DNA from: an uncultured Spirochaetota bacterium
GTDB taxonomy: Bacteria > Spirochaetota > UBA4802 > UBA5550
Reading direction: 5' to 3'
Length of the DNA stretch: 64,000 bases
Assembly: GCA_963827275.1 (NCBI GenBank)
Contig: CAWHAA010000005.1
Span: 617,924-681,923 of the forward strand
The position numbers and the translations under genes are program-made. Every line of letters begins with the position of its first letter. The first letter of the stretch is position 1. The notes under the pieces are model-generated. The model was not told the DNA's origin, did no database searches, and saw only the letters and a program-made list of their open reading frames with translations. Below, piece after piece: positions 8,994 through 55,084 of the stretch.

Positions 8994-9507
8994 CTATTTC
9001 TGTAAATTTACCAGCACTTCACCCGCAAGGGCATTCATGCTGTTGTACACCCTCGCACCGAAGCCCCACCAGGGGCTGTACGAGAATTCGTGGGTCACGA
9101 CGGTGGCGCGCTTGACCACTTTACCGCTTGCCGCGTCAACATACTCGATGCCGCACTTGACCGTGTAGTTCGACTCGCTCAGCGAGGCATTGCTGAACTT
9201 TACCAGCAACTGTTTCCGCGTCGCGCGGAGCGGCCGCTCCCTTCGTGGCGACGCCGGTCACCGTCCAGCCCTTGAAATAGCCCTTTACAAACTTCTGAAG
9301 ATTTTCATTCTGCGCCTTTATCTCCTGCGCCCATTCGGCCTGTTTCGGATAGCCGTACTTTTTCCAGTTCTGCTCTCCAAGGTCGAGCCATCCCACATGG
9401 ACCTTTTTGTATTTCTGGAATTCCGCTTTTACCTGGGCACTGCCGCAGCCTGACGCAAGAATGGCGGCGCACGCAACGAGACAGGCCAGCATTGTTAATT
9501 TTTTCAT
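8994..9507 (-). CDS. Small lipoprotein; the frame is interrupted between about 9210 and 9290
   Basis: The N-terminal ORF (9507..9136) starts MKKLTMLACLVACAAILASGCGS, a lipobox. The protein-like C-terminal part continues in another frame as ORF 9209..8994 (KFSNASLSESNYTVKCGIEYVDAASGKVVKRATVVTHEFSYSPWWGFGARVYN...). The two ORFs overlap. Confidence 0.5.
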
Positions 9508-9668
9508 GTAATCCTCCTAAAATTTGTATTTGTATGTTATATAAAAAAGCAATTCTGCTTTTTTCCGGGGAATAAGACGGCTTTTAAAACTCCACGGGAA
9601 GCCGGTAGATAAACAGTGTCTGCATGAAGGCGCCCGTCAAGCAAATATTTGATGCGGGTGATGTGAGG

Positions 9669-10577
9669 CTACCGCCGCTCCAGCGCCCTGAAGACGCAAG
9701 CATATTCGCCCTTCGCGTTCCAGGCGACCCACCCGCGCGCGCCGGTCGATTCCGCCCCGTCGATCTGGAGCGCAACGTAGCGCTCGAGGCCCACGCGGGC
9801 CCACCCTATGTTGTAGCCGAAGGCCTGGATGAAGGGCTGGACCGTGGCGCGGGTCCCTTTCACCCTCTCGAGCCCTCTGGCCGTCCCGTCCCGAACGGTC
9901 TCGCCGGGATTGGCCAGCCGGTCCCTGTCTCCGGTGAAATGGCTCGGGTAGAGCATGGGATAGATGACATCGGCATGTTTCGCGAAGTTTTCTATCTTCT
10001 GGCCGATGATGTCGTCGCGGTTGTACACGACCCTGCCGAAAAGGTCCGCGGAGAGCACGACCCCGCGCGCGTCTGCGATCCCGCGCGCGCGTTTCAGGAG
10101 CCGGTCCACGAAATCGTACTTCGCTGAAAGGGCATAGAACGGGGCGCCGTCGGGGAAGCGGATATAATCGAGCTGGACCTCGTCGAACCCGGCGGCCGCG
10201 GCCTCCTCGATCGTCGCGAAGAGGCGGTCCATCTGCTCCTCCGGCACCGGTAGCGATTTCAGCCCGTCCTGGAAGCAGACGACCCGCGCGGCGAGGTAGA
10301 TCCCCTCGCGTTTCAGGTACCCGATCACGTCGCGGTTCATCCTCGTGCGGGCTGACATGAAGGGCTGGACGTCCATGACAAGCATGTTGATGCCAAGGGG
10401 CTTCCCATCTTTCACCACCGCCCTGGCATAGTCCGGGCTGCAGGCCTGGCGGTTCGGCACGTACAGGCCGCGGAGCAGTCCCCGTCCCCCGCGCGGCGAC
10501 ATCCCCGCGGTCGAGCACGAGAGGCAGCCCATGGCGGCCGGGACAAGCAGGAGTATGATGACGCGCAGCCGGAGCAT
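9669..10577 (-). CDS. Putative glycoside-hydrolase-like TIM-barrel lipoprotein (GHL/DUF4015-type)
   Basis: Signal/lipobox MLRLRVIILLLVPAAMGCLSCS. It carries a motif I associate with uncharacterised GHL-family hydrolases: FDEVQLDYIRFPDG. The ATG at 10575-10577 lies 1 nt from the MFS transporter stop codon, indicating translational coupling. Confidence 0.5.
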   Translation of the reverse strand: MLRLRVIILLLVPAAMGCLSCSTAGMSPRGGRGLLRGLYVPNRQACSPDYARAVVKDGKPLGINMLVMDVQPFMSARTRMNRDVIGYLKREGIYLAARVVCFQDGLKSLPVPEEQMDRLFATIEEAAAAGFDEVQLDYIRFPDGAPFYALSAKYDFVDRLLKRARGIADARGVVLSADLFGRVVYNRDDIIGQKIENFAKHADVIYPMLYPSHFTGDRDRLANPGETVRDGTARGLERVKGTRATVQPFIQAFGYNIGWARVGLERYVALQIDGAESTGARGWVAWNAKGEYACVFRALERR

Positions 10578-10578
10578 A

Positions 10579-11998: not shown

Positions 11999-13666
11999 TT
12001 ATTCTTCCAGTATCAGCGCTTCATACGGTTCGATTTCAATCACGCTGCCCGGGTCCCCGCTCCTCCCGGCGGCGCTTGAGAGCACCACGCCCCCCGGCCG
12101 GAACCCATCAATGCGGAGCACCCTCTTTCTGCAGGAAAAATTCAGCGCCACGAGCAGGCACTCTCCGTCCCCTTCCCTGAAGAATGTCAGCACCTCCGGG
12201 TCCCCGCCGACAAACCGGAGGGAGCCGCGCTGGAGCGCCGGCCGCTTCTTTCGAAGCGCGATCAGCTCACGGTAGAAGCAGAGGAGGGAGCCCGGTTCGC
12301 CCATCTGCGCCGCGACATTCGCTTCCCGATAGTTATCGGTGACCGGGAGCCATGGATCAGAAAGGGAAAAGCCGGCATTGGGCCCCGCCGACCACTGCAT
12401 CGGCGTGCGCTCCGGGTCGCGCCCTCTATAGAAAGGCCAGTACTTCTTCCCGACCGGGTCCTGTATCCTGCGGCGTGGCACGCGCCCGTTCTTCATGCCG
12501 ATCTCCTCGCCGTAGTAGAGAAATGGCGTGCCGCGCGCCGTGAAGAGCAGGGCCGCAAGCACCTTCGCTTTTTTCACCCCGTACCTGTCGCGGCACCACC
12601 GGGTCATGCTGCGCGGCTGGTCGTGGTTATTGAGCACAAGGCTCGGCCATCCCCCGGCCGGGATCGCGGCGTACCAGCGCAGGAGACACTCGCGGAAGCG
12701 GGCCGCGCCGTACTTCGAAAAGAGGAGTGAAAAGTCAAACGCGAGGTGCAGCTCATCCGTGCCGCTGCCAAGGTACGACGCGGCTGTCTTCACGCCGCCC
12801 GGCGACGCTTCGTAGGTCTCTCCAACCATCATGCGATTATCATACTCGTCCAGAACCTTCCGCAGCTCCCGCAGCACGCCGTGGGTCTCCGGCCTGTTCT
12901 GGTCATACACGTGCTTCTGTAAATCGTAGGGCCGGGGTGCGTTGGGGCCCCAGCCGAACGGGTTGCTGCGGAACCGGTCGTCCTTGACGAGCCAGACGAC
13001 CGCGTCGAGGCGGAAGCCGTCAACGCCCCGGTCGAGCCAGTAGCGTATCTCGCCGAACACCGCGTCGCGGAGCGCCGGGGTGCGCCAGTTCAGGTCAGGC
13101 TGCTCCTTCAAGAATGAATGAAGATAATACTGCCGGGTCGTATCGTCCCATTCCCACGCCCTGCCGCCGAAGGCCGCCATCCAGTTGTTGGGCGGCCTCC
13201 CCCTTTTCCCGTCATGCCAGATGTACCAGTCCCGCCTGGGATTGTCCCGCGAAGCACGGGACTCGACAAACCAGGGGTGCAGGTGCGACGTGTGGTTGAT
13301 CACCAGGTCCATGACGATCTTTATCCCGCGCCGGTGCCCTTCGCGTATCAGGCGGTCAAAATCCTCATCGGTCCCGAACACCGGGTCGATGCCGCGGTAA
13401 TCGGAGATGTCGTATCCGAAGTCGAACATGGGAGAGGTGTTGATCGGCGAAAGCCAGATCGCGTCGATCCCGAGCCATGACAGGTAATCGAGCTTTTCAA
13501 TAATACCGGGGAGATCGCCCACACCGTCGCCGCTGGCGTCATAAAAGCTCCTCGGATAGATCTGGTAGATGGTGCCGTGCTTCCACCAGGTGAATTCGCC
13601 TGAATGCCGCATACTCTGACCCCCGGACATGTTTGGTGTACCATACGTTGAATCTCTTCCCTTCAT
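11999..13666 (-). CDS. GH13 alpha-glucosidase / oligo-1,6-glucosidase family enzyme
   Basis: 555 aa. N-terminal WWKHGTIYQIYPRSFYDASGDGVGDLPGIIEKLDYLSWLGIDAIWLSPI is the canonical GH13 oligo-1,6-glucosidase / trehalose-6-P hydrolase start. Catalytic regions GFRLDAV, EL..VGE and NHD are present. Confidence 0.85.
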   Translation of the reverse strand: MKGRDSTYGTPNMSGGQSMRHSGEFTWWKHGTIYQIYPRSFYDASGDGVGDLPGIIEKLDYLSWLGIDAIWLSPINTSPMFDFGYDISDYRGIDPVFGTDEDFDRLIREGHRRGIKIVMDLVINHTSHLHPWFVESRASRDNPRRDWYIWHDGKRGRPPNNWMAAFGGRAWEWDDTTRQYYLHSFLKEQPDLNWRTPALRDAVFGEIRYWLDRGVDGFRLDAVVWLVKDDRFRSNPFGWGPNAPRPYDLQKHVYDQNRPETHGVLRELRKVLDEYDNRMMVGETYEASPGGVKTAASYLGSGTDELHLAFDFSLLFSKYGAARFRECLLRWYAAIPAGGWPSLVLNNHDQPRSMTRWCRDRYGVKKAKVLAALLFTARGTPFLYYGEEIGMKNGRVPRRRIQDPVGKKYWPFYRGRDPERTPMQWSAGPNAGFSLSDPWLPVTDNYREANVAAQMGEPGSLLCFYRELIALRKKRPALQRGSLRFVGGDPEVLTFFREGDGECLLVALNFSCRKRVLRIDGFRPGGVVLSSAAGRSGDPGSVIEIEPYEALILEE

Positions 13667-13869
13667 CTATAACCATGCATCACATCGGCTCACCGGGTAT
13701 ATATTTCATGTGTGATAGCATGGAAAACGGGCAAATGCAATACTAATTTGCCTGAAAAATCATCAAAATCTCTTAAAAAAACCCTGTATATCCCGTGTAA
13801 AAAAATTATCACCCGCACGGAAAAGATTTACCAGAATTATACCCTAACCCTAAGGGGGTCAGAGTAACC

Positions 13870-14673: not shown

Positions 14674-15767
14674 CTGTAGAACATGAACTCGGTCACCGGG
14701 TTCGGGTCACGGTCCGCGAGGTTCATCTCGGCCAGCTTTTCCATGGTCGAGATAAAGGCGTCCCGGTCGCGCGTGGCATCGAGCGCGTAGCGGTCCGCTT
14801 CCCGCTCGTACCTGCGCGACAGGGCGTTCGAGAGGGGCATGGTGACCAGGCTGAAAAGGGTCAGGTAGAAAAGCAGCACGGGGATGGCGGCGACATCATA
14901 CACGTGCGTGTAGCCGAGGTACCCGAGGGTGTAGCGGTAGAGCTCGCCGCACAGGAAAAAAGAGAGGAAGATGCTGGCGCTCCCCAGCACGATAGACTTC
15001 ACGATGTGCCGCTTCCGGTAGTGCCCCATCTCGTGGGCAAAGACCACGGCGATCTCATCCGGCGTGAAGCGCTCGATCAGGGTGTCGCTCAGTATGATCC
15101 GCTTGCTCCTGCCGATGCCCGTGAATCCCGCGTTGGCCTTTTTCGTGTCCTTGCTCAGGTTGAACGAGTAGATCCCGCTGATGCTGATGCCCTGGCCCTC
15201 GAGCAGGCGCTCGATCCGGTCCCGTATCCCGTCCGATTCGAGGGGGCGGAACTTGTAGAAGATGGGGAATATGACCACCGGGGCGATCCGGGCCATGAAC
15301 ACGGAGATGAAGAAAATGAACACGCTGAACCAGAGCCACCAGAGCCAGCCGGTCATCTTTAAGAATACATAAAATACCACCGCGACCGGCAGACCAATGA
15401 CTACGCTTATCGCCGCCCCCTTGATCTTCTCGATGAGCCAGGCGGCCACGGTCTGGTTCGAGAGTCCGAACCGGTGCTCCACGATGTAACCGCCGTAAAA
15501 ATCGAAAGGGAAATCGATGAGTGAATAGAGGGCGCCGGTAACCGCGACGAAGCCGAGGAAGACCAGGTAATCATTGGCGACAACCCCGGACACGGCCCCG
15601 GCGATCAGGGGGGAGATCCCGCTGAAGGCCAGGAGCGCTATGATGACGATATTGAGCAGTATCCCGGCTATGGAAAGGCGCAGCTTGATTGTATTATACG
15701 CTTTTTCGCGGGGATGTTTTATTGTTTCTTCGGAGGGTTCAACCATTAAAGGGCTCCAGATATTCAT
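14622..15767 (-). CDS. M48 family (Ste24/HtpX-like) integral-membrane zinc metalloprotease
   Basis: 381 aa. Multiple N-terminal transmembrane helices followed by the HEXXH motif VVFAHEMGHYRKRHIV and a downstream Glu (NALSRRYEREADRYAL), which is the M48 architecture. Its 3' end overlaps the ORF6N gene by 52 bp. Confidence 0.75.
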   Translation of the reverse strand: MNIWSPLMVEPSEETIKHPREKAYNTIKLRLSIAGILLNIVIIALLAFSGISPLIAGAVSGVVANDYLVFLGFVAVTGALYSLIDFPFDFYGGYIVEHRFGLSNQTVAAWLIEKIKGAAISVVIGLPVAVVFYVFLKMTGWLWWLWFSVFIFFISVFMARIAPVVIFPIFYKFRPLESDGIRDRIERLLEGQGISISGIYSFNLSKDTKKANAGFTGIGRSKRIILSDTLIERFTPDEIAVVFAHEMGHYRKRHIVKSIVLGSASIFLSFFLCGELYRYTLGYLGYTHVYDVAAIPVLLFYLTLFSLVTMPLSNALSRRYEREADRYALDATRDRDAFISTMEKLAEMNLADRDPNPVTEFMFYSHPSIKKRIAFARKHAL

Positions 15768-15798
15768 AAAGGCGGGGTCACGTGACCCCGCCTTTATA

Positions 15799-16378
15799 TT
15801 ACGCCGTTGCCTTATACTCCCTGCCCATGCTGAAGGCCTTGAGGTTCATGTCGAGGAACTTCTCCTTGACCAGGGACCTGATGGCCGCCTCCCACTGCTC
15901 CTCGGTAAACTCGAGGTCTTTCGAAAGGATGCCGAGCATGACGATGTTCAGCGCCTTTTTGGTGCCGATCTCTTTCAAAATCGGCCCGGTGTCGACAAAG
16001 ACGGCCTTCTTCACGTTCTTCCCGACCCACTCCTCAATGTCGGACGGATATTTCATCGTCCCGGTCTCGCACCGGCGCCGGATTGACCTGCTCGCGGTTG
16101 ACGATCAGCTTTCCGTCGGGGGCGAGGTAGTCGAGCTTCCTCAGCACTTCCAGGGTCTCCAGGCTCACGATGAAATCGGCCTCCTCCCTCGGGATGAGCG
16201 GGGAATAGACCTTCTCCCCGTACCGGACGTTGCAGTCAACGCTGCCGCCCCGCTGCGCCATGCCGTGCACCTCTGATTCCTTCACGTCGTACCCGGCGTT
16301 CATGGCCACTTCCATCAGTATCTTGCTGGCCAGGATGACGCCCTGGCCGCCGACCCCGGCGAATATCACGTTCTTCAT
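15799..16378 (-). CDS. iorB: Indolepyruvate ferredoxin oxidoreductase beta subunit; apparent single-base frame shift near 16056-16075
   Basis: N-terminal ORF (16378..16034): MKNVIFAGVGGQGVILASKILMEVAMNAGYDVKESEVHGMAQRGGSV...LIVNREQVNPAPV. The C-terminal part continues in another frame (16056..15799): KYPSDIEEW...KALNIVMLGILS...AFSMGREY. The two pieces match IorB N- and C-terminal halves. Confidence 0.8.
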
Positions 16379-16388
16379 GCCCTGCTCC

Positions 16389-17951
16389 TTACTTCATCAG
16401 AATGCATTTTCTCTTCGATATGATGACCGACGGCTCGGGCGCGGCCACCTCTTCGCGTACGATGCGCTCGAACTCGTCCATGTCCTTCGGGTCGGTCACC
16501 ACGACCCGCTTCACGCCGCAGGCCCTGACCAGCATTTCGAGGTCGAGCGCGTGGGTCTCTTCTCCCATCAGGGTCTTTCCCGTGGCAGGGTGGTCCTGGT
16601 GGCCGGTCATCGCCGTCCCCCGGTTGTCCAGGATGATGACCGTGCCGGTCCCCCGGTTATAGACCAGGTCGATGAGGGGGGTGATGCCGGAATGGACGAA
16701 GGTTGAATCGCCGATGACGGCCACGCTTCTGCGCGCCATTTCCGGGCCGTGCGCCTTCTCCATGCCGAGGTGCATGCCGATGCCGGCGCCCATGCACCCC
16801 TGGGTGTGCATCGCCGAATAGGGCGGGAGGGCCGCCAGGGTATAACAGCCGATGTCGCCGTTCACGTGCAGGTCGAGCTTCCCGAGCACCGTGAACACGA
16901 AGCCGTGCGGGCACCCCTTGCAGAGCGCCGGCGGCCGCGGCGGGATCGGCTCGGACTCGTATTTCGCGTATTTACCCGGGTGCGCCCTGCCGTTCAGCGC
17001 CTGGTCAACGATCTCCGGCGAGAGCTCGAAGCATATCGGGATGATCTCCTTGCCGGTGCAGGGGATACCGAGGGCCTTGACATAGTCCTCGATGAACGGG
17101 TCAAGCTCCTCCACCACGTACAGCTCCTTGACGCCTGCCGCGAACTCGCGGATCAGCTCGTCGGGCATCGGCCACACCATGCCGATCTTGAGCACGGAGT
17201 CGTCCGGGCAGGTCTCCTTCACGTACTGGTAGGCCACGCCGTCGGTGATGATGCCCCGCTTCCTGCTCTTGCCCCACTCGATGCGGTTGAGCCCGCTCGT
17301 GTTGGAATACTCCTTCAGCTTCTTCTGCTGTTCCTCGATGAACACGTGGCGCGGCCGCGCATGCACCGGCAGCATTACGTATTTCTTGAAATTGCGTTCA
17401 AAGGGCTTCACCGGCACGTTTTGTTTCGGTTCGATCTCCACGATTCCCTGCGAGTGGGCGATCCGCGTGGTGATCCGGACGATCACCGGCCTGTCGAATT
17501 TCTCCGAAATATCGAACGCGAGCTTCGTGAAGTCCTTGCACTCCTGGGGGCTCGACGGCTCGACCATGGGCACTTTCGCGGCGCGCGCAATGTGCCGGTT
17601 GTCCTGTTCGTTCTGCGAGCTCCACGCGCTCGGGTCGTCGGCGTTGATGATGACGAAGCCGCCGTTCACGCCGGTGTAGGAAAAGGTAAAGAGCGGGTCC
17701 GCCGCAACGTTCAGTCCGACGTGCTTCATGGCCGCCAGCGCCCTCGCCCCGGCGACCGAGGCGCCCGCCGCCACCTCGAGGGCCACCTTCTCGTTGGGCG
17801 ACCACTGCGACTTGATGTCGCGGTACTCCCGCGCGATGGTTTCCAGGATCTCGGTGCTCGGCGTTCCGGGATACGCGGTGGCAACATGGCACCCGGCCTC
17901 GTACGCTCCCCGCGCGATGGCCTCGTTGCCCAGCAGAACCTTCTTTTCCAT
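16389..17951 (-). CDS. iorA: Indolepyruvate ferredoxin oxidoreductase alpha subunit (TPP-dependent)
   Basis: 520 aa. MEKKVLLGNEAIARGAYEAGCHVATAYPGTPSTEILETI is the IorA N-terminus. A TPP-binding region (GDIGCYTL...GDSTF) and a Cys cluster (CKGCPHG) are present. Confidence 0.85.
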   Translation of the reverse strand: MEKKVLLGNEAIARGAYEAGCHVATAYPGTPSTEILETIAREYRDIKSQWSPNEKVALEVAAGASVAGARALAAMKHVGLNVAADPLFTFSYTGVNGGFVIINADDPSAWSSQNEQDNRHIARAAKVPMVEPSSPQECKDFTKLAFDISEKFDRPVIVRITTRIAHSQGIVEIEPKQNVPVKPFERNFKKYVMLPVHARPRHVFIEEQQKKLKEYSNTSGLNRIEWGKSRKRGIITDGVAYQYVKETCPDDSVLKIGMVWPMPDELIREFAAGVKELYVVEELDPFIEDYVKALGIPCTGKEIIPICFELSPEIVDQALNGRAHPGKYAKYESEPIPPRPPALCKGCPHGFVFTVLGKLDLHVNGDIGCYTLAALPPYSAMHTQGCMGAGIGMHLGMEKAHGPEMARRSVAVIGDSTFVHSGITPLIDLVYNRGTGTVIILDNRGTAMTGHQDHPATGKTLMGEETHALDLEMLVRACGVKRVVVTDPKDMDEFERIVREEVAAPEPSVIISKRKCILMK

Positions 17952-30532: not shown

Positions 30533-31401
30533 ATGGAAATATCAGCGGTAAAATTGCGCAACAGCTACCAGATAAATTACGTCAACACCAACAACCTGTT
30601 CGTGAACCAGAACGCCCTGTGCGTGGTGGAGACCGAGCATGGCGTCGATATCGGCAACGTGTACAAGTGCCACAAGCACCGCGAACGCGGAGGTCAAGGG
30701 CAAACTCCTGCGCCTGACCACCCCGGACGACCTGAAGCAGGTACCGGAGATCGAGGCGATCGAGAAGAGCGCGTTCGAGAAATGCCGGGAAAAGTCGAAG
30801 GCGAAGAACCTCGACATGAAGCTCATCTCGGTGAAGTGCCTGTTCGACCGCACGAAGATCATCTTCTACTTCGTGGCGGAGAACCGCATCGACTTCCGCG
30901 AGCTGGTGCGCGAGCTCGCCTCGATTTTCAGGACACGGATCGAGATGCGGCAGATCGGCGTGCAGGGACGAGGCGCGCCTCGTCGGCGGGTACGGGCCCT
31001 GCGGCAAGCAGCTCTGCTGCGTGCACCAGAGCGAGGAGTTCGAGCCCGTGTCGATCAAGATGGCGAAGGAGCAGAACCTGAACCTGAACTCGCTCAAGAT
31101 ATCGGGGATGTGCGGCAGGCTCCTCTGCTGCCTGGGATACGAATACAAGCTCTACAAGGAGATAAACAAGGACATGCCCGATCCGGGAGCGCACATCCAG
31201 GCGGGCGAGAACACCTACGTCGTCACCGGCGTCGACACCCTCAAGGAATCGATCCGCATGAGGCACAAGGACCGCAATGTCGAGATATTCAAATGCGACC
31301 TCGTGATCGAAGGCAACAAGTACTCACTGAAGCCCGAGGTCGTCACCAGGATCGAGACCGTCGAGGAAGATGTCCCGGAAGAGGATACGTATACTTTGTA
31401 A
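30533..31401 (+). CDS. PSP1 domain protein (YaaT-like); two apparent single-base frame shifts
   Basis: Three ORF pieces in three frames: 30533-~30680 (MEISAVKLRNSYQINYVNTN...GNVYKCHKH), ~30680-~30965 (ANAEVKGKLLRLTTPDDLK...RIEMRQIGVQ) and ~30968-31401 (DEARLVGGYGPCGKQLCCVHQSEEF...ISGMCGRLLCCLGYEY...). Joined, they form a complete PSP1 protein. The second shift is an extra G in CAGGGACGAG (30963-30972). Confidence 0.8.
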
Positions 31402-31548: not shown

Positions 31549-33500
<1,952 letters not shown>

Positions 33501-36106: not shown

Positions 36107-36755
36107 TTAGTCGCGTTTTCTTATGCGACGGCGGACCGCAACGGTGCCCAGCACAAGGCCCATGACGGCGATAAGGCCAAGGGCGGCGGGGCCGAACGAT
36201 TTTTTGCCTGCGGCGCCGGTGGCGGCGTTCGCGCCGCACCCGGAATCATCATCATTGTCCAGCAGGGCAAGAAGGGCGACAGGACTATCAGTCGTTGTTC
36301 CCGCGCCGATAAGGCCCGTGCCGGTGAGTGTAGCAGAGTCAGGATAGTTCCCCGGTATCGACGAAGATACGGTGAAGGTAGCCGTGCTGGTAACTTCTGC
36401 GCTGGGAGTAAATACTACCTGAGCGGTACAGGTTGCCAACCTTGCGAGAGAAGTGCAATTATTCGAAATAATACTAAAAACGTTGTCGGCGTCACCGGAT
36501 TCCCCCGACAGACACACCCTGAATGGTCGAACAAGGAGAAACAGCTCCTTGTGTACTGTTATTTGTTATTGTAACAGTTTGCGGGGCTGAGGGCGTTGTT
36601 GGATTCTGGTTTCCAAAATCGATGGGATCGGGAGAAATACTTAAAGAATAAATACAATCAGACGGGGCCGCATAAACAGAAATCGGCACCAGCGCAACGA
36701 CCGCGCACAGGGCCATCAGAGCTATTAGAAAGTACTTTTTCATAAAAAAACACAC
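36107..36755 (-). CDS. Secreted beta-sandwich (choice-of-anchor/DUF1573-like) protein with Cys-containing C-terminal sorting-like tail; frame shift at a G5 run (about 36501-36506)
   Basis: N-terminal ORF (36755..36492): signal peptide MKKYFLIALMALCAVVALVPISVYA then DFGNQNPTTPSAPQTVTITNNSTQGAVSPCSTIQG. It continues after the shift (36517..36107): NNCTSLARLATCTAQVVFTPSAEVTSTATFTV...DNDDDSGCGANAATGAAGKKSFGPAALGLIAVMGLVLGTVAVRRRIRKRD. That is a GCG motif, a hydrophobic helix and an Arg-rich tail. Confidence 0.5.
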
Positions 36756-37043: not shown

Positions 37044-37068
37044 TTATGTTTACAGCATGAGATCCGGA

Positions 37069-38802: not shown

Positions 38803-38830
38803 ATACTCTCCTTTATATTAACTGTTATGG

Positions 38831-39073
38831 GAAGAGCCTCAAAATTTTGATGCGTTACTTGAATAAAATCTTAAACAAGTGTTTAACGACATAATATAAA
38901 ATGTCAATTTTTTTATGCCCCCTATATGCCGCGCGGAATCTTTTGTTTTATACAAAAATACATGACCAAATTATAGATTTGTCATGTATGATAAAAACAT
39001 AGATGCCCAGGATAATTTTAAAATAGAAAAATCCTGTGACAAAATAAAAAACCACCGGCGGGGGGCCGGCGGC
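38831..39073. repeat. Conserved non-coding cassette R2, near-identical copy of R1
   Basis: Same sequence as R1 with about 10 substitutions. Its terminator hairpin CCACCGGCgggggGCCGGCGG lies 26 bp after the stop of the gene at 39101-40849. The same palindrome is at about 38948-38975. Confidence 0.8.
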
Positions 39074-39100
39074 TGTTAACGAAACAATAAACAAGATGGG

Positions 39101-40849: not shown

Positions 40850-40952
40850 CGCGGGTCAGCGACCGCGGCTGTTATGTAGCCGGTTTGGATTTTTGTAATC
40901 TTGACATGATATTCATTTTCGTCAACACTTTACTGGCGGGGCAGTGGGTTTG

Positions 40953-41075
40953 TTTACTCTGACCCCCCGGTTTCCTGCGTTGCTTACTCTGACCCCAGTG
41001 CTTTTCCTGCGAGCCGGCGATAGTTATCGGTAGATTCCGAACTCTGACACCGTATTATTGTTTACTCTGACCCCC
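40953..41075. repeat. Cluster of short dispersed repeats: 3-4 copies of TTACTCTGACCCC plus one CGATAGTTATCGG
   Basis: TTTACTCTGACCCCCC 40953-40968; TTACTCTGACCCC 40984-40996; CGATAGTTATCGG 41018-41030; degenerate AACTCTGACACC 41039-41050; TTTACTCTGACCCCC 41061-41075. Two copies are followed by TTT(T)CCTGCG. The cluster is in the divergent intergenic region between lipoprotein B and the FadL-like outer-membrane protein gene. Confidence 0.6.
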
Positions 41076-41300
41076 TTGTTTTCATAATAATTTATTTTTT
41101 ATATACATAAAATGATAAAAAATAATATTTTACTGGACTCTTCCATAGAAAATCGCTATTATTAGTGGTTTGGGTAGAATGGGTTGCATTATTAGAAGGT
41201 AACAATATAAAAGAACAAACGCTCTAATGATGCGAGCTATGTTCCTGTGCAATCGGGCCCTTATTGTGCGGTACAAGTCGCATCATAGCAATGTGTTGTA

Positions 41301-43091
41301 ATGAAAAAAATTATAAAGCCACTATCGAAGACCTTCGTGATCTGCCTGGCAGCGATAACTATCCATGCTGCGGCAGCTTCCGCTTCTCCCCTGCATGATG
41401 AGAGTGGCATCATGCCCGAGCACAGCGCGGAATATGTACGCACGCAAAGCAGGAACGCCAGCACTGATGCTGACGCGGTTTTTTACAACCCGGCCGGTTT
41501 GGCTTTCCTGCTCAATGGCGGGATATACCTCATGCTCAACGTCATGAATGAATACCGCCAGCACGATACGTCCGCCACCCTGTGGGGCCTGCAGGGCGTT
41601 GACGCGTATACTCCGGCAACCGCGCCAGGCCGCTACCTTGACAGGGGAACGTATTCCACCCGGTCCATGACGACCATGCCCTCCGACATGGCATTCATTT
41701 ACAAAAGGACCAACTGGGCCGTCTTCTCTTATTTCTCGCTCCTGAACCACATCCCCGGCCAGAACAGCTCACGGGGCCTGTCCTCGCTGGACCGTTCTAC
41801 CGTCGCCTTCAACGCGGTCATGGCCTCGCGGCTGTCGCAGCAGCTGGGCCACATCGCCAGCAGCAGCTACCTGAGCAGGAGCCAGACGGACCTGGGCGTT
41901 ACGGTCGGCGGGACGTTCGCGCCCCTCGACTGGTTCTCGCTGTCGCTGGCCGCCAGGTACCTCTACATGAGCTCAAGCACCGTGCTCGCACACGCGCCAC
42001 TCGACGTCGGCTACTCGGGCGGGATATCGGGAAACGCCTACCAGGTGCCGACCTACATCGATACGGACCTCTCGGGCCACGGGGCCGGCATCATCGCGGG
42101 GCTCGACGTCAGGCCCCGTGAAGAAATCAACATCGGCCTGCGGCTCGAATACTATCCGCCGATGGCGGCGAAAAAGACGACCGAACGCTTCATCGCCAAC
42201 CCGGTCGTGGCGCAAACGGGGGAGCTGAACATATTCTGCGACAGCGTCTGGCCGCTGCTGCTCAATGACCGCGCCGGCAGCATGGGGCAGGTGCTTAACT
42301 TCCTGCTGATGGACCAACGGGCGCTCAAGAACATCGGCAACAGGGTCGCGGTGACCTATCCCGCATCTTTATCGCTCGGATTCTCCTACCTGGCCGCGGG
42401 CGCCGTGAAGCTGTCCACGTCCGTCGATATCACCTTTCCCCGCGCCCGGGACCTTGACGGCCGGGAGCGCGACTGGAACATCGCCGGGTACCGACTGGGC
42501 CAGAGCGTTGAATGGATCATCAACAAGTGGGTCGACGTCAGCGCCGGCTATTCATACCACGATTACGGGATAAAAGCTGCCAGGAGAACGGAGTACAACA
42601 CCCTCCTGCCGAGCCATACCGTGGGCGGCGGCTTCACCATGAAGGTGCTTGACTTCATGAACCTGACTGCGGGCGGCTCATACAGCTTTGAAACTCCCTC
42701 TCGCACCGGCAGCCTGGAGCTGATACGCTCGACCCTCATGGGCGACCAGTTCGCCTACGGCATGGCGCAATCAGGGCGGCACACGGGCAGCTCGTGGCGC
42801 ATCTCGCTGGGCGTTTCCTTCTCGATCTTCCCGGTATCGGCGGAACACATACGGAGGGCGGAGGAGCATTACTGGAAAGGAATGTCTAATTATCTGTCCG
42901 ATGACATCGATTCCGCCATCGACGAGTTCAAGGCGGCAAAGTTCAACAACCTGTACTACCGGGACGTTGACAGGAAGATCCGGGACCTCACGGAATTAAA
43001 ACAACTGATTGGCAGGAACAAACAGCAACAGGAAGAAGACAAGAATGATGCCGAGAGAAAAAACAGCAAAAGGAACAGGGGCACCGAATAG
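41301..43091 (+). CDS. Outer-membrane beta-barrel protein (FadL/TodX-like hatch motif) with about 100-aa charged C-terminal extension
   Basis: Signal peptide MKKIIKPLSKTFVICLAAITIHAAAASA. AVFYNPAGLAFL resembles the FadL N-terminal NPA hatch motif. The last strand is ...WRISLGVSFSIF, followed by a helical, Lys/Glu-rich tail (EHIRRAEEHYWKGMSNYLSDDIDSAIDEFKAAKF...). Confidence 0.5.
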   Translation: MKKIIKPLSKTFVICLAAITIHAAAASASPLHDESGIMPEHSAEYVRTQSRNASTDADAVFYNPAGLAFLLNGGIYLMLNVMNEYRQHDTSATLWGLQGVDAYTPATAPGRYLDRGTYSTRSMTTMPSDMAFIYKRTNWAVFSYFSLLNHIPGQNSSRGLSSLDRSTVAFNAVMASRLSQQLGHIASSSYLSRSQTDLGVTVGGTFAPLDWFSLSLAARYLYMSSSTVLAHAPLDVGYSGGISGNAYQVPTYIDTDLSGHGAGIIAGLDVRPREEINIGLRLEYYPPMAAKKTTERFIANPVVAQTGELNIFCDSVWPLLLNDRAGSMGQVLNFLLMDQRALKNIGNRVAVTYPASLSLGFSYLAAGAVKLSTSVDITFPRARDLDGRERDWNIAGYRLGQSVEWIINKWVDVSAGYSYHDYGIKAARRTEYNTLLPSHTVGGGFTMKVLDFMNLTAGGSYSFETPSRTGSLELIRSTLMGDQFAYGMAQSGRHTGSSWRISLGVSFSIFPVSAEHIRRAEEHYWKGMSNYLSDDIDSAIDEFKAAKFNNLYYRDVDRKIRDLTELKQLIGRNKQQQEEDKNDAERKNSKRNRGTE

Positions 43092-43110
43092 CATACCGGG
43101 AGGTCTGGTT

Positions 43111-45114
43111 ATGAAGCAAAGGATATTTTACATGATCATGATAAGCCTGCTCGGCCTGAACGGGTGCACAAACTATCTCGAGGGCAACCGGGATACCCAG
43201 CTGCTCTACGCGGCCTTTTTCAGCACGGCGCCGGTGCTGAACCCGCTTGTGATCGCCGGCACATCGAACAATTTCATTACCCTGGCCCGGCCGACATTTG
43301 TCGTTGCCGGAAGTCCCGCGCCGTCGGTCGAAGCGTACATCGGGCTGGACGACGGGAGCATGACTATTTCGGGAACGACGGTGACCGGCGCCATAGAGGG
43401 CCCGGTCGACGTTTCAGCCGCTCCGTACCAGTTTAACACCGGCCTGTCGCCAGACACCATTTATCGCATCTATGTCGTGGCGATAAACCCCAATGGCTAT
43501 TCCGTCAGGACCATCACACAGAGTACTTCGCATATCGTGCCGGTGCTGGATCCCCTGGTGATGAGCATTCCGCCAACATCCGATACAATAACCCTGGACC
43601 AGCCGACTTTCTCGACTGCGGGCAACCCCCTGCCCACGGTTGAGGCGTATATCGGCTATGCCGGGGGAGCAACGCCCATATCCATAACACCGGCGGCCAC
43701 CGGCTATACCGTTGCCAACGATCTCCAGGGCCCGGTGGACGTTTCCGCCGGCGGATGTCAGTTCACCGGCCTCGCGAACAATACCCTCTACCGGGTTTAC
43801 GTGGTGGCGCAGAACATGGATGTGAGCGGTACATACCACCAGTCGATCGAGTTTATCGACGAGAGCACTTATGGGATAGCGCCGGTCATGGACGCGCTGG
43901 TGACAACGACGATTCCGCCGACAACAGACACGATAACACTGGACCAGCCGACGTTCTCGACTGCGGGGAACCCCCTGCCAGCGGTGAGCGCGTATATCGG
44001 CGTGGACGGCTTCATTTCAGTCGCGGGAACCGCGGTAAGCGGCGCCACCCAGGGACCGATCGACGTGTCATCAGCTGACTACACCTTCACCGGCCTTGCA
44101 AATGACACGACCTACCGGATCATCGTGGTGGCGCAGAACGTTATCGGTTCCTCGGTACAGCAGGCGACGCAGAGCACGACGGGCATCGCGCCGGCGATGA
44201 ACGCGCTGGTCACGACCACCATCCCGCCCACAACAGACACGATAACACTGGACCAGCCGACATTTGCCACTGGGGGCAACCCGGTCCCGACGGTGCGGGC
44301 CTATATCGGCATTGATGGATTCATAACGGTCGCAGGGACCACGGTAAGCGGCGCAGACCAGGGGCCTGTCAATGTGGCAGCGGCAGGCTGTACCTTCACC
44401 GGCCTGGCCAACGACACGACCTACCGGATCATCGTGGTGGCTGAAAACAGCGTCGGCTCATCGGTGCAGCAGGCGACGCAGAGCACCGGGGGCATAGCGC
44501 CGGTAATGGAAGCACTGGTCATAACAACGGTTTCACCCACGATTGACACAATTACCCTGGACCAGCCGACGTTTACCACCGGAGGAAACCCGGCGCCTAC
44601 TGTCAAAGCCTACATCGGTATTGATGGCTTTATTTCAGTCGCGGGGACCGTGGTGACCGGCGCAGACCAGGGACCGATCAACGCGGCATCTGGAGGTTAC
44701 ACCTTTACCGGCCTGGACAATGACACGACCTACCGGATCATTGTGGTGGCCGAAAATACCTTCGGCTCTTCGGTACAGCAGACGACGCAGAGCACGGTGG
44801 GTATCGCTCCGGTGATGGACACGCTGGTCACGACCACTATCCCACCGACCACAGACACGATCACACTGGACCTGCCGACGTTTACCACCGGGGGCAACCC
44901 GGCGCCGACGGTCAAAGCATACATCGGTATTGACGGCTTTATTTCAGTCGTGGGGACAGTGGTGACCGGCGCAGACGAGGGGCCGATCAATGTAGCGTCA
45001 GCCGGATACGCGTTCACGGGACTGACAAACGGCACCACCTACCGGATCATCGTGGTGGCCGAGAACAGCGCGGGTTCTTCAGTACAGCAGGCAACAGAGA
45101 CCACGCTGCCGTGA
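43111..45114 (+). CDS. Repetitive surface lipoprotein with about six tandem FN3-like repeats
   Basis: Start at ATG 43111 (ribosome-binding site GGGAGGT; lipobox MKQRIFYMIMISLLGLNGCTN). The ORF track's start at 43009 overlaps the upstream gene. About 100-aa units (IAPVMDALVTTTIPPTTDTITLDQPTFSTAGNPLPAVSAYIGVDGFISVAGTAVSGATQGPIDVSSADYTFTGLANDTTYRIIVVAQNVIGSSVQQATQST) repeat about 6 times at high DNA identity. Confidence 0.65.
   Translation: MKQRIFYMIMISLLGLNGCTNYLEGNRDTQLLYAAFFSTAPVLNPLVIAGTSNNFITLARPTFVVAGSPAPSVEAYIGLDDGSMTISGTTVTGAIEGPVDVSAAPYQFNTGLSPDTIYRIYVVAINPNGYSVRTITQSTSHIVPVLDPLVMSIPPTSDTITLDQPTFSTAGNPLPTVEAYIGYAGGATPISITPAATGYTVANDLQGPVDVSAGGCQFTGLANNTLYRVYVVAQNMDVSGTYHQSIEFIDESTYGIAPVMDALVTTTIPPTTDTITLDQPTFSTAGNPLPAVSAYIGVDGFISVAGTAVSGATQGPIDVSSADYTFTGLANDTTYRIIVVAQNVIGSSVQQATQSTTGIAPAMNALVTTTIPPTTDTITLDQPTFATGGNPVPTVRAYIGIDGFITVAGTTVSGADQGPVNVAAAGCTFTGLANDTTYRIIVVAENSVGSSVQQATQSTGGIAPVMEALVITTVSPTIDTITLDQPTFTTGGNPAPTVKAYIGIDGFISVAGTVVTGADQGPINAASGGYTFTGLDNDTTYRIIVVAENTFGSSVQQTTQSTVGIAPVMDTLVTTTIPPTTDTITLDLPTFTTGGNPAPTVKAYIGIDGFISVVGTVVTGADEGPINVASAGYAFTGLTNGTTYRIIVVAENSAGSSVQQATETTLP
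43250..45110 (+). repeat. Intragenic tandem repeat (about 300-bp unit x about 6) encoding the FN3-like modules
   Basis: Near-identical DNA blocks are visible. For example GACACGATAACACTGGACCAGCCGAC recurs at about 43926, 44236, 44536 and 44850. Confidence 0.7.
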
Positions 45115-45247
45115 CGCGGCGGGGCCGCAGGCAAATTTACCTGCGCCGAAAATTAATTTCTTGCCATAATCCCGCCCGGTGGCGTATTCTTTAATCCGCC
45201 TGCGGCCCCGCGGCCGCAGGAACATCTATCCATACCAGGAAGCTGCC

Positions 45248-48616: not shown

Positions 48617-49087
48617 TCAAGCAATTTTTTCAATTACAAGGTCAGCCGGGATTCGGGAATAGTTTCTCCGGGTGGGGGGGAGGCCCCAGTGGAGTTTCCA
48701 GCAGATTATTCCATCAACAATCTCCCTGACAACAAGATAATTTCTGTATGTATAGTTATCGGTATTATTTTTCTTATTCATATACTTTAAGAATTTTTTT
48801 AATGCATATGCAAGGATCAACGAAACAGACATCTTGAACAACTTCCTTAAATCCAAAAAATACTCGTAATCATCTTCCCTTAAACTTAAATGAAATGCAT
48901 GCCACTCCCCCGGGGGCATCCTCTTTTGATATTGCACCATCTTCCCAAGCCGTGCAGGATCAGGAATATCATCCATAACTTTTTTTATCAGGTGAGTTAT
49001 CAATTCCGATCTTGTGATTCCATGTGCATGCGCAACTGAGGTTATCTGCTCCAGCGCCGTAATACTGATATTAAGGGTTGTATCCAT
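48617..49087 (-). CDS. Hypothetical protein in a low-GC (about 40%) segment
   Basis: 156-aa ORF with base composition atypical for the genome and no recognisable domain. It contains a variant of the inverted-repeat motif (TATAGTTATCGG, 48751-48762) inside the ORF. Its status as a coding gene is uncertain. Confidence 0.4.
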   Translation of the reverse strand: MDTTLNISITALEQITSVAHAHGITRSELITHLIKKVMDDIPDPARLGKMVQYQKRMPPGEWHAFHLSLREDDYEYFLDLRKLFKMSVSLILAYALKKFLKYMNKKNNTDNYTYRNYLVVREIVDGIICWKLHWGLPPTRRNYSRIPADLVIEKIA

Positions 49088-51853: not shown

Positions 51854-52516
51854 TTATTTACTCTGTGACACGACCCACTGGACAGCGGCTTTCACAAGCT
51901 CCGGCCCCTTCTGGATGCCCAGCTTGTCCTTGATCTTTTTGCGGTGGCTCTCGATGGTATTCACGCTGATATTCAGCTTCTTTGCTATGTCGCCGGTGCT
52001 CATACCGCCGCCGATCATGCGGAATATCTCAAGTTCGCGGTCAGACAGAATCTCAGGCATGGACTCCCCGCCGGTCTCCTTTCCCTGGAAGAGGCGGTCA
52101 ATGATCTTCATGGAGATCCTTCCGCTCAGGTAGAGCTCCCCGCTCATGACGGTCCGTATTGCCTGGATGATGACCGCCGGGGCCTCTTTTTTCGCCACGT
52201 AGCCGCGCGCGCCTGCGCGCAGGGCCCGCTCCGCGTAGATGTTCTCGTCGTGCATCGAAAGCACCAGGACCTTGACCGCGGGGAAGCGGTCCTTCATGGC
52301 CTTGATAAGGTCGATGCCGCTTGTTTCGCTCTCCATCGAAATATCGACGATGGCGAGGTCCGGCTCTTCCTGGCTGATGCAGCGGATCGCCTCTTCCGCG
52401 CTGCCCGCTTCGTTGATGACCGAAAGCCCCTGCTCTTTTTCAATGACCTTCTTCATTCCCTGGCGCACCAGTGGATGGTCGTCGACGATAATGATCCTTG
52501 TGTTCTGTTCCGCCAT
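51854..52516 (-). CDS. NarL/FixJ-type response regulator (REC + LuxR-type HTH)
   Basis: 220 aa. IIIVDDHPLVRQG...LAIVDISM (REC) and a C-terminal LSDRELEIFRMIGGGMSTGDIAKKLNISVNTIESHRKKI (LuxR/GerE HTH). Confidence 0.85.
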   Translation of the reverse strand: MAEQNTRIIIVDDHPLVRQGMKKVIEKEQGLSVINEAGSAEEAIRCISQEEPDLAIVDISMESETSGIDLIKAMKDRFPAVKVLVLSMHDENIYAERALRAGARGYVAKKEAPAVIIQAIRTVMSGELYLSGRISMKIIDRLFQGKETGGESMPEILSDRELEIFRMIGGGMSTGDIAKKLNISVNTIESHRKKIKDKLGIQKGPELVKAAVQWVVSQSK

Positions 52517-52674
52517 GGTCCGGCCTTTTATCCCGGGGCCCCGCAGCGAAGGCGCCGCCGGGCCCGGTGAGATTCTCTTCTATAAATAAATATCCTAAAT
52601 AAAAACGACCTTGTCAATAGTAAATTATCGTATTCCGCGCATAACAGAATCCATTACTGGGCCGCCAGGCGACG

Positions 52675-55084
52675 TCAGGCATTGCCGTCGATAAATTCCT
52701 TCCTGATCATGACGCGGACGGTAAATCCCCGGCCGCCGGTATGAAACGAGCAGGAACCGCCGATGATCCCCGCCCGGTACCGCATGATCCGCAGCCCGAT
52801 CCCCTTGCTCTCATCGAACGTATCCGCCGCTCCCGAGCCGTTATCGTGGACCTCGAGATAGAGATGGTCCGTATCATCGGCAAGGCGGATCTCTATCCGG
52901 TCCGCCTTACCGTGCTTGATGGCGTTATTGATCGACTCCCGCGCGATGAAGTAGAGGTTGGTCACCACCGCGCCGTTGGTCACCGGCCCGGAGATGCCGC
53001 TGTCAAGCGTGCAGGTTATGCCGAAGAGGTCCTCGGTGTCCTCGGCCAGCTCGCGCAGCGCGCGCCGGACGTCATGCGACTCAAGACGCGTCGTCCAGAG
53101 TCCCCGCGATATCTTACGCGCATCGTCGATGGATTCCGCGATATTGGCGCTGATCTCCTCGACATCCGCCAGCTCCGGGTAATTCTTTTCCCGCATGGAG
53201 CGCTTCAGCGCCTCTGCCAGGAACCCGATGCCGGTCAGCTTCTGGCCCAGGCCGTCGTGCAGGTCCTGTCCGATCCGCTTCCGCTCGAGCTCGCTGATCT
53301 CCATGATCTCTTTCTGGAGGCGCCTCGTCTCCGTGATGTCGTGCGAGAAAACGGCCAGCTTGGTGACGACCCCCCGGGAATCGGTAACGGGGTACATGAT
53401 CGTGTCATACCAGCTCCTGCCGATCCGGTGCTCGAAGCGGACCGCCTTGCCCGAACGCTCCACCGCGTCCATCTTTTCCCTGTAGCGGCCGGCATCGGCC
53501 TCCCTGATATAATCGAACATCGACCGGCCGATGACCTCCGACCTTCGGCCTGGCAAGCCTCTTTTCCAGCTCGGCATTCAGGTCGATGACGGTGCCGTCG
53601 GCGGACACCAGGAACACCGGCTCGCTCGGCGAATTGATGAGGGCGCGCGCGACCTCCTCGCCCTCCCGGAGCAGGAGCTCCGCCTTCTTCCTCTCCTCGA
53701 TTTCGCTCCGAAGCTTCGCGGTCCGCTCCCGGACGCGCTGCTCGAGCAGCTCGTTCGCTTCCGTGAGCGCACGCTCGTAATTCTGCCGCTGCAGGGTCAG
53801 GGCGTAGAGGTCGGCGATTCGGCGCGCCGTTTCAAGGTCACGCTCCGTGTAGTCATGGGGCGCGTTCGCCAGCGCGATCTGGCCGAGGAGCGTATCACCG
53901 ACCACGGCCGGGACCGACAGGAAATTTTTAAGATGGACATGGCCGGCGGGAACACCGCTGGACGCCGTGTGCCCGCCGGGAGAATTCGTGTAAAACGGCC
54001 TCAGCGTGTTGAGCGAATGTCCCCAGAGCCCGCCGTAGGCGCCGTCGGCCCCGGCGGGAAACCTGACCAGGTCGTGGCCGTTCTTGATATTGCATTCTTC
54101 ATCCATCATCTGCGAAAGGGTGTGGCAGAGGAGGTCCCGGGTCCGGGAATCAATGATCCCGGCGTACCCGTGCTCGCTGCCGGTGAGGGCCCGTGCGTGG
54201 CGGAGCACCATCGCCGACATCTCCTCGATCGCGATTCCCGGCCTGATCATGAACTCCGAAAGGTCCGCGAGCGCGGCGTTCACGGACAGCTCCCACTGTA
54301 GATTTTCCTCCAGCATTTTACGCCGGGATATGTCCCGCACGATTCCCAGGAGGTGCTTCGGCTGGCCCGCCTCGTCGCGGATGACCGTAAGGGTAAGGTC
54401 GATCGGGAAGACCGTGCCGTCCCTCCGCATTGACTTGTATTCGGTGGTCTGCTGGGCGTCGGCCTTGATGTTTTTCCTCAGGTTGCGCTTCGCGCGTTCC
54501 CGCTCCTCCTCCGAAAAAAGCGAGAACACCGTGACCCCCGACGATTTCATCTCCTCGAAGCTTTCAAAGCCGTACATGGCGAGGAACTTCCTGTTCGCCA
54601 TCAGGAAATTCATGTCAAGGTCGGTGAGCGCGATGCCGTCCGGTGAAATCTCGACGAGGGTGCGGTAGCGCACCTCGCTGTCGCGCAGTTTTTTCTCCAG
54701 TCCGCTCCTCTGCAGGGCGGTCTCGATGGTCGTGTACAGGTCGTCGGTGCCCACCGGCTTGACCAGGTACCCGTGCGGGTGGGTCTCGAGGGCCCTCCGG
54801 AACATGTCCGGCGAGCTGTAGGCGGTGAAATAGATCACCGGTATGTCCATCGTTTTCTTGATCTGCCTGACCGCTTCTATCCCGTTCATTTCTCCTTCGA
54901 GGGTGATGTCCGCGATGATCAGGTCCGGTTCAAGCTCCACCGCCTTTTCCACCGCCTCGGCGCCCGAGGAGAGCGGGTCATACACCTCGTAGCCGATCCG
55001 GCGCAGGGTGTTGCGGATATCGAGCGCGGTAAGGCGGTCGTCTTCGACGATCATGATGCGGGCGTTGGTCAGGCGTTCTTTCAT
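52675..55084 (-). CDS. Hybrid sensor histidine kinase (REC-PAS-GAF-PAS-HisKA_3-HATPase); apparent frame shift near 53540-53560
   Basis: Upstream ORF (55084..53405): REC (IMIVEDDRLTALDI...LIIADITLEG), PAS, GAF-like, coiled-coil, then the start of a second PAS (ALINSPSEPVFLVSADGTVIDLNAELEKRL). The second PAS continues in another frame (ORF 53577..52675: RRSEVIGRSMFDYIREADAGRYREKMDAVERSGKAVRFEHRIGRSWYDTIMYPV...). That second ORF then carries the NarX-type H-box ERKRIGQDLHDGLGQ and the HATPase N/G-boxes. Confidence 0.8.

Follow-up and report, generated by a model that had tools for sequence, protein, structure and literature searches.

Eight frame breaks in six genes of an uncultured Spirochaetota genome: probable one-base insertion errors of the assembly consensus

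A stretch of 64,000 nucleotides from the assembly of an uncultured Spirochaetota bacterium (hereafter the window) contains conserved genes, the essential metG among them, which are broken into fragments lying in different reading frames. The locus raises the question whether the organism carries interrupted genes or the deposited sequence is at fault. The first-pass annotation had decided for indel errors, placed often at G/C homopolymers. Frameshifts caused by small indels in long-read metagenome-assembled genomes (MAGs) are a documented problem, and the indels of long-read consensus sequences have been attributed mainly to homopolymers (PMC9262707), which is not the pattern in the window. 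The window comes from a contig of 809,976 bp, and to judge by this length the assembly is probably of long-read origin. Frameshifts of this kind, reportedly the subject of the proovframe preprint (10.1101/2021.08.23.457338) as well, are assessed by the IDEEL test and corrected by tools such as proovframe.

Frame breaks and corrected reading frames

Eight frame breaks split six genes, which encode a lipoprotein, IorB, PSP1/RicT, MetRS, a secreted choice-of-anchor-D-like protein and a hybrid histidine kinase (Table 1). All the breaks claimed by the first-pass annotation were present, at most about 10 bases from the coordinates it gave. The second PSP1 break, which it had described as an extra G in CAGGGACGAG, does not lie in the GGG of that string but is a G at 30962, directly 5' of it (GT[G]CAGG). 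Deletion of one base per site restored uninterrupted ORFs of 288 (PSP1), 646 (metG), 192 (iorB), 802 (kinase), 170 (lipoprotein) and 211 (secreted protein) amino acids, and no internal stop was found in the corrected genes. The sign of the shift was +1 at each of the eight breaks, that is, the window holds one extra base every time (two-sided binomial p = 0.008), and no coding deletion of the window was found in the same-species alignments. That all the breaks are insertions had gone unremarked in the earlier annotation.

Table 1. Split genes and extra bases in the window (the extra base is in square brackets)
Feature	Position	Strand	Context	Remarks
Lipoprotein gene	8994..9507	-	AC[A]G (gene strand)	split into ORFs of 123 aa and 71 aa
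Extra base T, lipoprotein	9211	+	CAAC[T]GTTT	placed by same-species DNA
iorB (indolepyruvate oxidoreductase beta subunit)	15799..16378	-	GTG[C]GAG or GT[G]CGAG (gene strand)	
Extra base, iorB	16069 or neighbouring base			placed by relatives at 85% nucleotide identity only
PSP1/RicT gene	30533..31401	+		three frames
Extra base G, PSP1	30681	+	CACC[G]CGAA	placed by same-species DNA
Extra base G, PSP1	30962	+	GCGT[G]CAGG	placed by same-species DNA
metG (methionine--tRNA ligase)	31558..33500	+		three frames
Extra base G, metG	31737	+	CCGC[G]CCGC	placed by same-species DNA
Extra base A, metG	31885	+	TGGC[A]GAAG	placed by same-species DNA
Secreted or anchored protein gene	36107..36755	-		weak choice-of-anchor-D match
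Extra base, secreted protein	36502-36506	+	within C5 (G5 on the gene strand)	
Hybrid histidine kinase gene	52675..55084	-	GT[C]G (gene strand)	REC-PAS-GAF-PAS-HisKA_3-HATPase (Pfam)
Extra base G, kinase	53540	+	CTCC[G]ACCT	placed by same-species DNA

Six related Spirochaetota genomes (L001-L005, L015) supplied tblastn queries for PSP1 and metG, each an unbroken single ORF there, and in the window both genes were found to spread across three frames. In PSP1 the frame changed from 2 to 3 near 30660-30694 and from 3 to 1 at 30962/30964; in MetRS it changed from 1 to 2 near 31748-31758 and from 2 to 3 at 31882/31884. The first-pass statement that the joined fragments give full-length conserved proteins was borne out. 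After the one-base corrections MetRS, IorB and RicT matched family models over their full length at the equivalog level. The corrected MetRS matched NF008900 at 3-647 of 648 with 844 bits, while its fragments covered only 3-68 and 112-647. The corrected 192-aa IorB matched NF005325 at 4-191 of 192, with 249 bits against a cut-off of 230; in the uncorrected sequence its Pfam POR domain was divided between 16037-16393(-), with profile positions 1-98, and 15802-16104(-), with positions 101-173. The corrected PSP1 matched RicT_YaaT_fam at 3-212 of 213, and its 182-aa fragment gave no match. The C-terminal fragment of the kinase began partway through a PAS domain (profile 32-110; Pfam).

Other overlapping ORF pairs were considered as candidates for further frameshifts. 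The pairs 5574-7592/7498-8955, 28670-29071/29050-29514, 41289-43091/43009-45114, 55101-56825/53405-55159 and 60282-60713/60581-61594 proved to be separate intact genes according to Pfam and the gene calls of other strains.

Same-species assemblies and the deposited contig

Same-species DNA was available from several SRA runs assembled by Logan and from the NCBI assembly GCA_964430645.1, at 98.8-99.4% nucleotide identity; these strains diverge from the window genome by 0.6-1.2% and strictly show intact genes as the species norm only. Over about 52 kb of alignment, the sole coding indels were the one-base insertions of the window at 9211, 30681, 30962, 31737, 31885 and 53540. These six were absent from every same-species assembly covering them, which means 2 to 4 assemblies per site at five of the sites and one (L091) at the lipoprotein site. 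In case of L082 (15,775 bp aligned, 99.1% identity) the alignment contained four gaps only, exactly the PSP1 and metG sites. The same four gaps were present in L083 (11,738 bp, 99.4%) and L084 (5,696 bp, 98.8%), and the two metG gaps in L081. Thus L082, L083 and L084 each lack exactly the two extra bases of PSP1 and encode the intact 288-aa protein (P0121), and these three together with L081 each lack exactly those of metG and encode the intact 646-aa MetRS (P0001). The four insertions of PSP1 and metG fall inside 1.2 kb of the 15.8-kb alignment (p about 0.002, on a rough estimate of the span), which fits a local consensus problem.

The kinase insertion was missing from both L085 (GCA_964430645.1) and L086 (Logan SRR30024181, 99.4% identity), each encoding an intact 802-aa protein. 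L091 (Logan SRR30024182), aligned over 13,890 bp at 99.0% identity, encodes an intact 170-aa lipoprotein, and its sole coding gap against the window is at 9211. The intact 170-aa form was also found in JGI and Logan, and the 123-aa fragment comes from the public contig of 809,976 bp. Same-species DNA for iorB was sought with two proteins as entry points, an ACT-domain protein and a 381-aa peptidase, and none was found; two relatives at 85% nucleotide identity (L092, L093) encode an intact 192-aa IorB, reading PVETG or PVQTG across the site.

The broken proteins are themselves present in the databases. The fragments P0264, P0267, P0269, P0270, P0271 and P0272 are all catalogued from the one NCBI and ENA contig of 809,976 bp. 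The fragments listed from it include those of the kinase (559 and 262 aa), and holB and the intact neighbouring genes come from it too. Since the fragments are listed as separate proteins from this public contig, the errors lie in the deposited assembly, and the remark that ORF tracks fragment these genes extends to the public protein sets. Logan contigs from ERR12035938 and ERR15459710 carry proteins identical to those of the window. The possibility that the breaks had been spiked into the window, on purpose or at random, was rejected, because the same breaks occur in the public contig and insertions placed at random would double an adjacent base in 43.5% of the cases.

The split genes are under purifying selection and display neither decay nor relaxed constraint. 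The substitutions private to the window comprised 68 synonymous and 24 non-synonymous changes, and 71 of the 92 were at codon position 3. Downstream of the breaks, no private substitution of PSP1 was non-synonymous, and in metG 4 of 18 were (counted by hand). The absence of the insertions from the same-species assemblies and the lack of any sign of decay agree with the first-pass opinion that these are sequence errors and not real pseudogenes.

Sequence context of the inserted bases

The inserted base differed from both flanking bases at seven of the eight sites, and a run was involved only at the C5 of 36502-36506. When all insertions possible in 32,379 nt of coding sequence were enumerated, 43.5% extended the neighbouring base, so seven non-extending insertions out of seven have a probability of 0.018. 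The window contains 112 G/C runs of at least 5, including runs of 7 to 9, and 111 of them were free of a frame break; among those covered by same-species DNA a single length difference was seen, G7 versus G8 at 48674. The part of the first-pass claim which placed the breaks often at G/C homopolymers was therefore not upheld. Its caveat that homopolymer-dependent phase variation cannot be told from error holds for the C5/G5 site of the secreted protein and not for the other seven, because only that break is at a run.

Six of the seven non-run insertions adjoin a third codon position and equal its synonymous alternative, the pairs being GTC/GTG, GCC/GCG, GCG/GCA, GTG/GTC, ACG/ACA and GTG/GTC. 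The probability of at least six such cases among seven is 0.035 given a non-run insertion and 0.0076 unconditionally; with seven sites the statistics are moderate. The seventh site, 30681 (CCG/GCG), is in a PSP1 linker that varies among the relatives. The "extra" alleles were looked for in the other strains compared and were seen in none of them, and no motif was shared among the break sites. The coincidence of the extra bases with synonymous alternatives beside third positions suggests that, at strain SNPs, a consensus step retained the two alleles together.

Origin of the extra bases and its consequences

The frame breaks are best explained as single-base insertion errors in the consensus of the deposited MAG, the real genes of the organism being intact; judging from the sequence comparisons we give this reading a probability of about 0.88. 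The breaks resemble the known indel errors of long-read MAGs in that conserved genes are split into adjacent ORFs of different frames, are intact in other assemblies, and have spread as fragments into protein databases. They differ in that seven of the eight are non-homopolymer insertions and that long G/C runs were called correctly. For the seven non-run sites, the likeliest specific mechanism, which we put at even odds, is that the consensus kept both alleles of strain SNPs. The sample would then have contained several strains of the species, about 1% apart, and at some strain SNPs a consensus or polishing step would have retained both alleles side by side instead of picking one, which would leave one added base unlike its neighbours. 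Most natural SNPs are synonymous and fall on the third base of a codon, and the extra base would therefore usually sit there as well. Artefacts of consensus or polishing that keep both alleles at heterozygous or strain-variable sites are a known class. The extra bases of the window may belong to it: they are unlike their neighbours and, in six of seven cases, the synonymous alternative of the adjoining third-position base, and several strains at 98.8-99.4% identity are present in public runs.

Classical platform errors in homopolymer length, i.e. over-called G or C runs in pyrosequencing, semiconductor or nanopore data, would be in line with the stress laid on homopolymers in the published account of long-read consensus errors (PMC9262707) and with the single site in the C5/G5 run, but the alignments refute them for the seven sites where the base is unlike both neighbours, and nearly all the long runs are unaffected; as the general cause they are very unlikely indeed. 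Genuine frameshift mutations, with six recently inactivated genes in the window strain including metG, are very unlikely too. The base calls stand in the deposited assembly and the window does represent a separate strain, marked by SNPs found in it alone, but the essential metG would have to carry two uncompensated shifts, four of the shifts are clustered, the corrected frame still shows a strong excess of synonymous private substitutions beyond the breaks, and the genes are intact in all the other strains compared. Pseudogene decay in bacteria is biased towards deletions, whereas the lesions here are all insertions, with no deletion and no nonsense mutation. The breaks share with the pseudogenes of reductive genomes that conserved genes are interrupted by frameshifts, and differ from them in the kind of lesion, in the purifying selection kept, in the essential gene hit and in the intact state of the other strains. 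Programmed recoding, in which the breaks would be real and +1 ribosomal frameshifting or slippage during transcription would carry expression past them, would account for the same sign at all eight shifts, and as in prfB a +1 shift would be needed for read-through. Known programmed shifts, such as that of prfB, are conserved among relatives, whereas in every relative and same-species strain compared the ORFs are contiguous; the sites have no common motif and no slippery runs, no stop codon is found in frame at the shift, and the old frame runs on without a stop for tens of codons beyond it. The chance of this explanation is close to negligible. Hardly more credible is the bolder proposal that the extra bases are real and that full-length MetRS, RicT, IorB and kinase are made by pervasive, motif-independent +1 recoding; its weaker and likelier variant takes only the poly-G breaks of the surface protein as real and as phase variation.

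The secreted protein has to be treated separately. The frame switches in its gene at GTCGGGGGAATCC, and the joined 211-aa protein matched NF012200 at 17-104 of 108 across the junction, with 38.9 bits against a cut-off of 45. Its gene is that of a hypervariable surface protein, with a middle part that diverges strongly from strain to strain between a signal peptide and a C-terminal anchor that are nearly identical. Either a common error in run length or true slippage may have produced the break. A real slipped-strand poly-G tract, phase-variable or decaying, is possible at this gene, though we consider it rather unlikely. Besides the hypervariability and the G5 run on the gene strand, the orthologue in L082 speaks for it, being likewise out of frame, though at a G8 run elsewhere in the gene; at the break site of the window this orthologue reads through. 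L082 is probably an accurate-read assembly, because it is part of a 33-kb contig assembled by Logan. As in the phase variation of surface proteins by homopolymeric tracts, poly-G runs are found at the breaks of a hypervariable exported protein in two strains. However, five bases make a short tract for a contingency locus, the positions of the runs differ between the two strains to which the comparison is limited, and insertion errors are demonstrable elsewhere on the same contig.

The value of attributing the breaks to consensus errors is practical, not biological. About one ninth of the genes in the window are falsely fragmented, and public protein entries are already split (among them pieces of 559 and 262 aa from the 802-aa kinase, of 536 aa from MetRS and of 182 aa from RicT). 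Pseudogene counts, completeness estimates and claims of truncated genes would mislead for this genome, and checks focused on homopolymers would miss non-homopolymer insertions adjoining synonymous sites. The signature points to a mixed-strain consensus as the cause, and if this is true, systematic correction would be possible.

Frame breaks and one-base repair

By three-frame translation, MetRS was found in three frames, with the N-terminus, then about 45 residues and then the last 536 residues each in a frame of its own, and PSP1/RicT was likewise spread over three frames. When the single intact ORFs of six related Spirochaetota genomes were used in tblastn searches, the frame changes were reproduced in both genes, in the order 2, 3, 1 for PSP1 and 1, 2, 3 for MetRS. 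The Pfam POR domain of IorB was divided between two adjacent ORFs (profile positions 1-98 and 101-173), and the C-terminal ORF of the hybrid histidine kinase starts midway through a PAS domain. The lipoprotein changes frame at 9211 and the secreted choice-of-anchor-D-like protein at a C5 run (36502-36506).

Deletion of one base per site gave continuous ORFs of 288 (PSP1), 646 (MetRS), 192 (IorB), 802 (kinase), 170 (lipoprotein) and 211 aa (secreted protein). In NCBIfam the corrected MetRS matched NF008900 over positions 3-647 of 648 (844 bits), IorB matched NF005325 over 4-191 of 192 and RicT its own model over 3-212 of 213; the uncorrected fragments gave partial matches or none. Thus the frame breaks claimed by the first-pass annotation were borne out by translation, tblastn, Pfam and one-base repair, and in MetRS, IorB and RicT the joined fragments do form full-length conserved proteins, as it had stated. 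According to the ORF coordinates the sign was identical in all eight shifts, the window having one base too many (two-sided binomial p = 0.008). Further frameshifts could be ruled out at the other overlapping ORF pairs, which are separate intact genes.

Comparison with other strains

The window has a GC content of about 58%, with 0.75-0.9 at the third codon positions of real genes, and the closest species representatives for its MetRS are uncultured Spirochaetota MAGs (78-83% amino-acid identity). Its intact proteins are catalogued from one NCBI and ENA contig of 809,976 bp, and we infer from this length that the source was a long-read metagenome assembly. Proteins identical to those of the window are also encoded on Logan contigs from ERR12035938 and ERR15459710. 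The frame breaks are present in the public record: the kinase pieces of 559 and 262 aa are catalogued from that contig, as are pieces of PSP1 (182 aa), MetRS (536 aa), IorB (85 aa) and the lipoprotein (123 aa).

A protein search found an intact 646-aa MetRS (P0001) and an intact 288-aa PSP1 (P0121), the latter reported as 100% identical to the reconstructed window protein. The contigs carrying them, and contigs reached via neighbouring intact proteins, were used for comparison, the DNA being from the Logan assemblies of SRR8925820, SRR30024180, SRR30024181 and SRR30024182 and from NCBI GCA_964430645.1.

Same-species alignments and features of the window
Item	Window position	Strand	Length	Identity	Result
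L082 (33-kb Logan contig)			15,775 bp	99.1%	4 gaps in all, the window insertions 30681, 30962, 31737, 31885
L083			11,738 bp	99.4%	gaps 30681, 30962, 31737, 31885
L084			5,696 bp	98.8%	gaps 30681, 30962, 31737, 31885
L081			2,701 bp	98.8%	two metG gaps
L085 (GCA_964430645.1), L086 (SRR30024181)	44-62 kb			98.3-99.4%	sole indel in a confirmed gene, 53540
L091 (SRR30024182)			13,890 bp	99.0%	one coding gap, 9211; 170-aa lipoprotein encoded
Secreted choice-of-anchor-D-like protein	36107-36755	(-)			L082 counterpart 15560-16210
Low-GC (45-50%) segment	~36300-40950				strain-variable
Lipoprotein-like ORF	37069-38802		577 aa		inside low-GC segment; paralogous to the next
Lipoprotein-like ORF	39101-40849		582 aa		inside low-GC segment
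fn3-repeat protein	43009-45114	(+)		94-95%	
ORF, function not assigned	48617-49087	(-)	156 aa		

L085 and L086 each encode an 802-aa kinase. In case of iorB the comparison was limited to two relatives of 85% nucleotide identity, both with an intact 192-aa IorB reading PVETG or PVQTG over the site. The remaining gaps were intergenic (5399, 13662-13853, 49141, 51477), in-frame repeat variation (60381, fn3 region) or within a small uncharacterised ORF (48673). The intergenic ones are length differences of 1 or 2 bases (5399, 13662, 13785-13853, 49141 and 51477), some of them located in short runs of A/T or of G; since those at 49141 and 51477 are shared with L086, they are natural polymorphisms.

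Private substitutions were defined as window sites unlike every strain covering that site. They comprised 68 synonymous and 24 non-synonymous changes, 71 of the 92 lying at codon position 3, and 3' of the breaks, in the corrected frame, non-synonymous private sites numbered 0 in PSP1 and 4 of 18 in metG. None of the corrected genes has an internal stop. The synonymous excess and the lack of internal stops therefore indicate that the window comes from a distinct natural strain with its genes under purifying selection, and the set of insertions is the only anomaly. Genuine inactivation of the genes in this strain would mean two uncompensated shifts in one essential gene, insertions exclusively, with zero deletions and zero nonsense codons, and four events inside 1.2 kb (rough p ~0.002), in genes intact in all other strains, which argues against it. 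Programmed recoding across the breaks found no support, as they show no shift-site motif, no in-frame stop and no conservation among relatives. Purifying selection, the insertions-only pattern and the intact genes of the other strains support the earlier reading as sequence error; with the possible exception of the break in the secreted protein, the frame breaks are not a biological feature.

The secreted protein and other strain-variable regions

The choice-of-anchor-D match of the secreted protein is weak and lies across the junction (38.9 bits against a cut-off of 45). On the gene strand the break is at a G5 run; the L082 orthologue keeps its frame through this site but loses it at another run, a G8. 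The break in the window may be either a sequence error or real slippage. Between strains the signal peptide and the C-terminal anchor are near-identical, while the middle part diverges strongly, and the product is possibly a surface protein subject to diversification or phase variation.

The two lipoprotein-like ORFs had no match in Pfam or NCBIfam. L082 is mostly without the low-GC segment, just about 1.8 kb separating its helicase gene from a 596-aa gene, and in the species representatives L001 and L004 the syntenic region lacks the whole of 34000-45200. The fn3-repeat protein is seemingly longer in the window than in L082 and L086 (564 aa), and an additional repeat unit, roughly 300 bp long, is indicated by BLAST segments that overlap. 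At 48674-48680 (+ strand), the sole long run differing in length between strains, the window has G7 against 8 in L085 and L086, which shifts the frame of the 156-aa ORF; the difference may be due to error, to polymorphism or to phase variation. A 12-bp tandem duplication relative to L085 (GACGCTCGGCCG, 60381-60392), apparently in frame and 5' of the S18 domain in the rpsR ORF, looks like natural variation.

Nature of the extra bases

The attribution of the indels to G/C homopolymers in the first-pass annotation was refuted at seven of the eight sites, where the extra base is unlike either neighbour (+ strand: C[T]G, C[G]C, C[G]C, T[G]C, C[G]C, C[A]G, C[G]A). If every possible insertion in 32,379 nt of CDS is considered, 43.5% would extend a neighbour, so that seven non-extending ones out of seven have p = 0.018. 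Of the 112 G/C runs of at least five bases in the window (the longest being 9), 111 are without a break. In six of the seven non-run sites the extra base adjoins the third codon position and equals a synonymous alternative (GTC/GTG, GCC/GCG, GCG/GCA, GTG/GTC, ACG/ACA, GTG/GTC); for at least six the probability is 0.035 on condition that the insertion is outside a run, and 0.0076 without this condition. The seventh falls within a variable PSP1 linker. The spectrum of extra bases resembles that of natural SNPs (74% synonymous), and the public runs contain several strains about 1% apart. We infer, as the best mechanistic reading, that at some strain SNPs a consensus or polishing step would have retained both alleles side by side.

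Frameshifts also seem to be present in further ENA assemblies from related spirochaetes. P0002, a MetRS from a 126,033-bp ENA contig, has a C-terminal half of out-of-frame sequence. In L093 (ENA ERZ21831019 ctg32969l; loci listed 1-1033 and 6167-6845) an epimerase is divided among three overlapping gene calls, and a protein faintly matching PLDc_N between two overlapping ones.

Indel frameshifts in long-read MAGs are documented (PMC9262707). Since the published cases are ascribed mainly to homopolymers, whereas the signature in the window is mostly non-homopolymer, it represents a known artefact in an atypical form. The frameshift problem probably extends beyond the contig of the window, and the insertions are useful in two ways, as they warn about sequence quality and offer a testable clue to the origin of the error.
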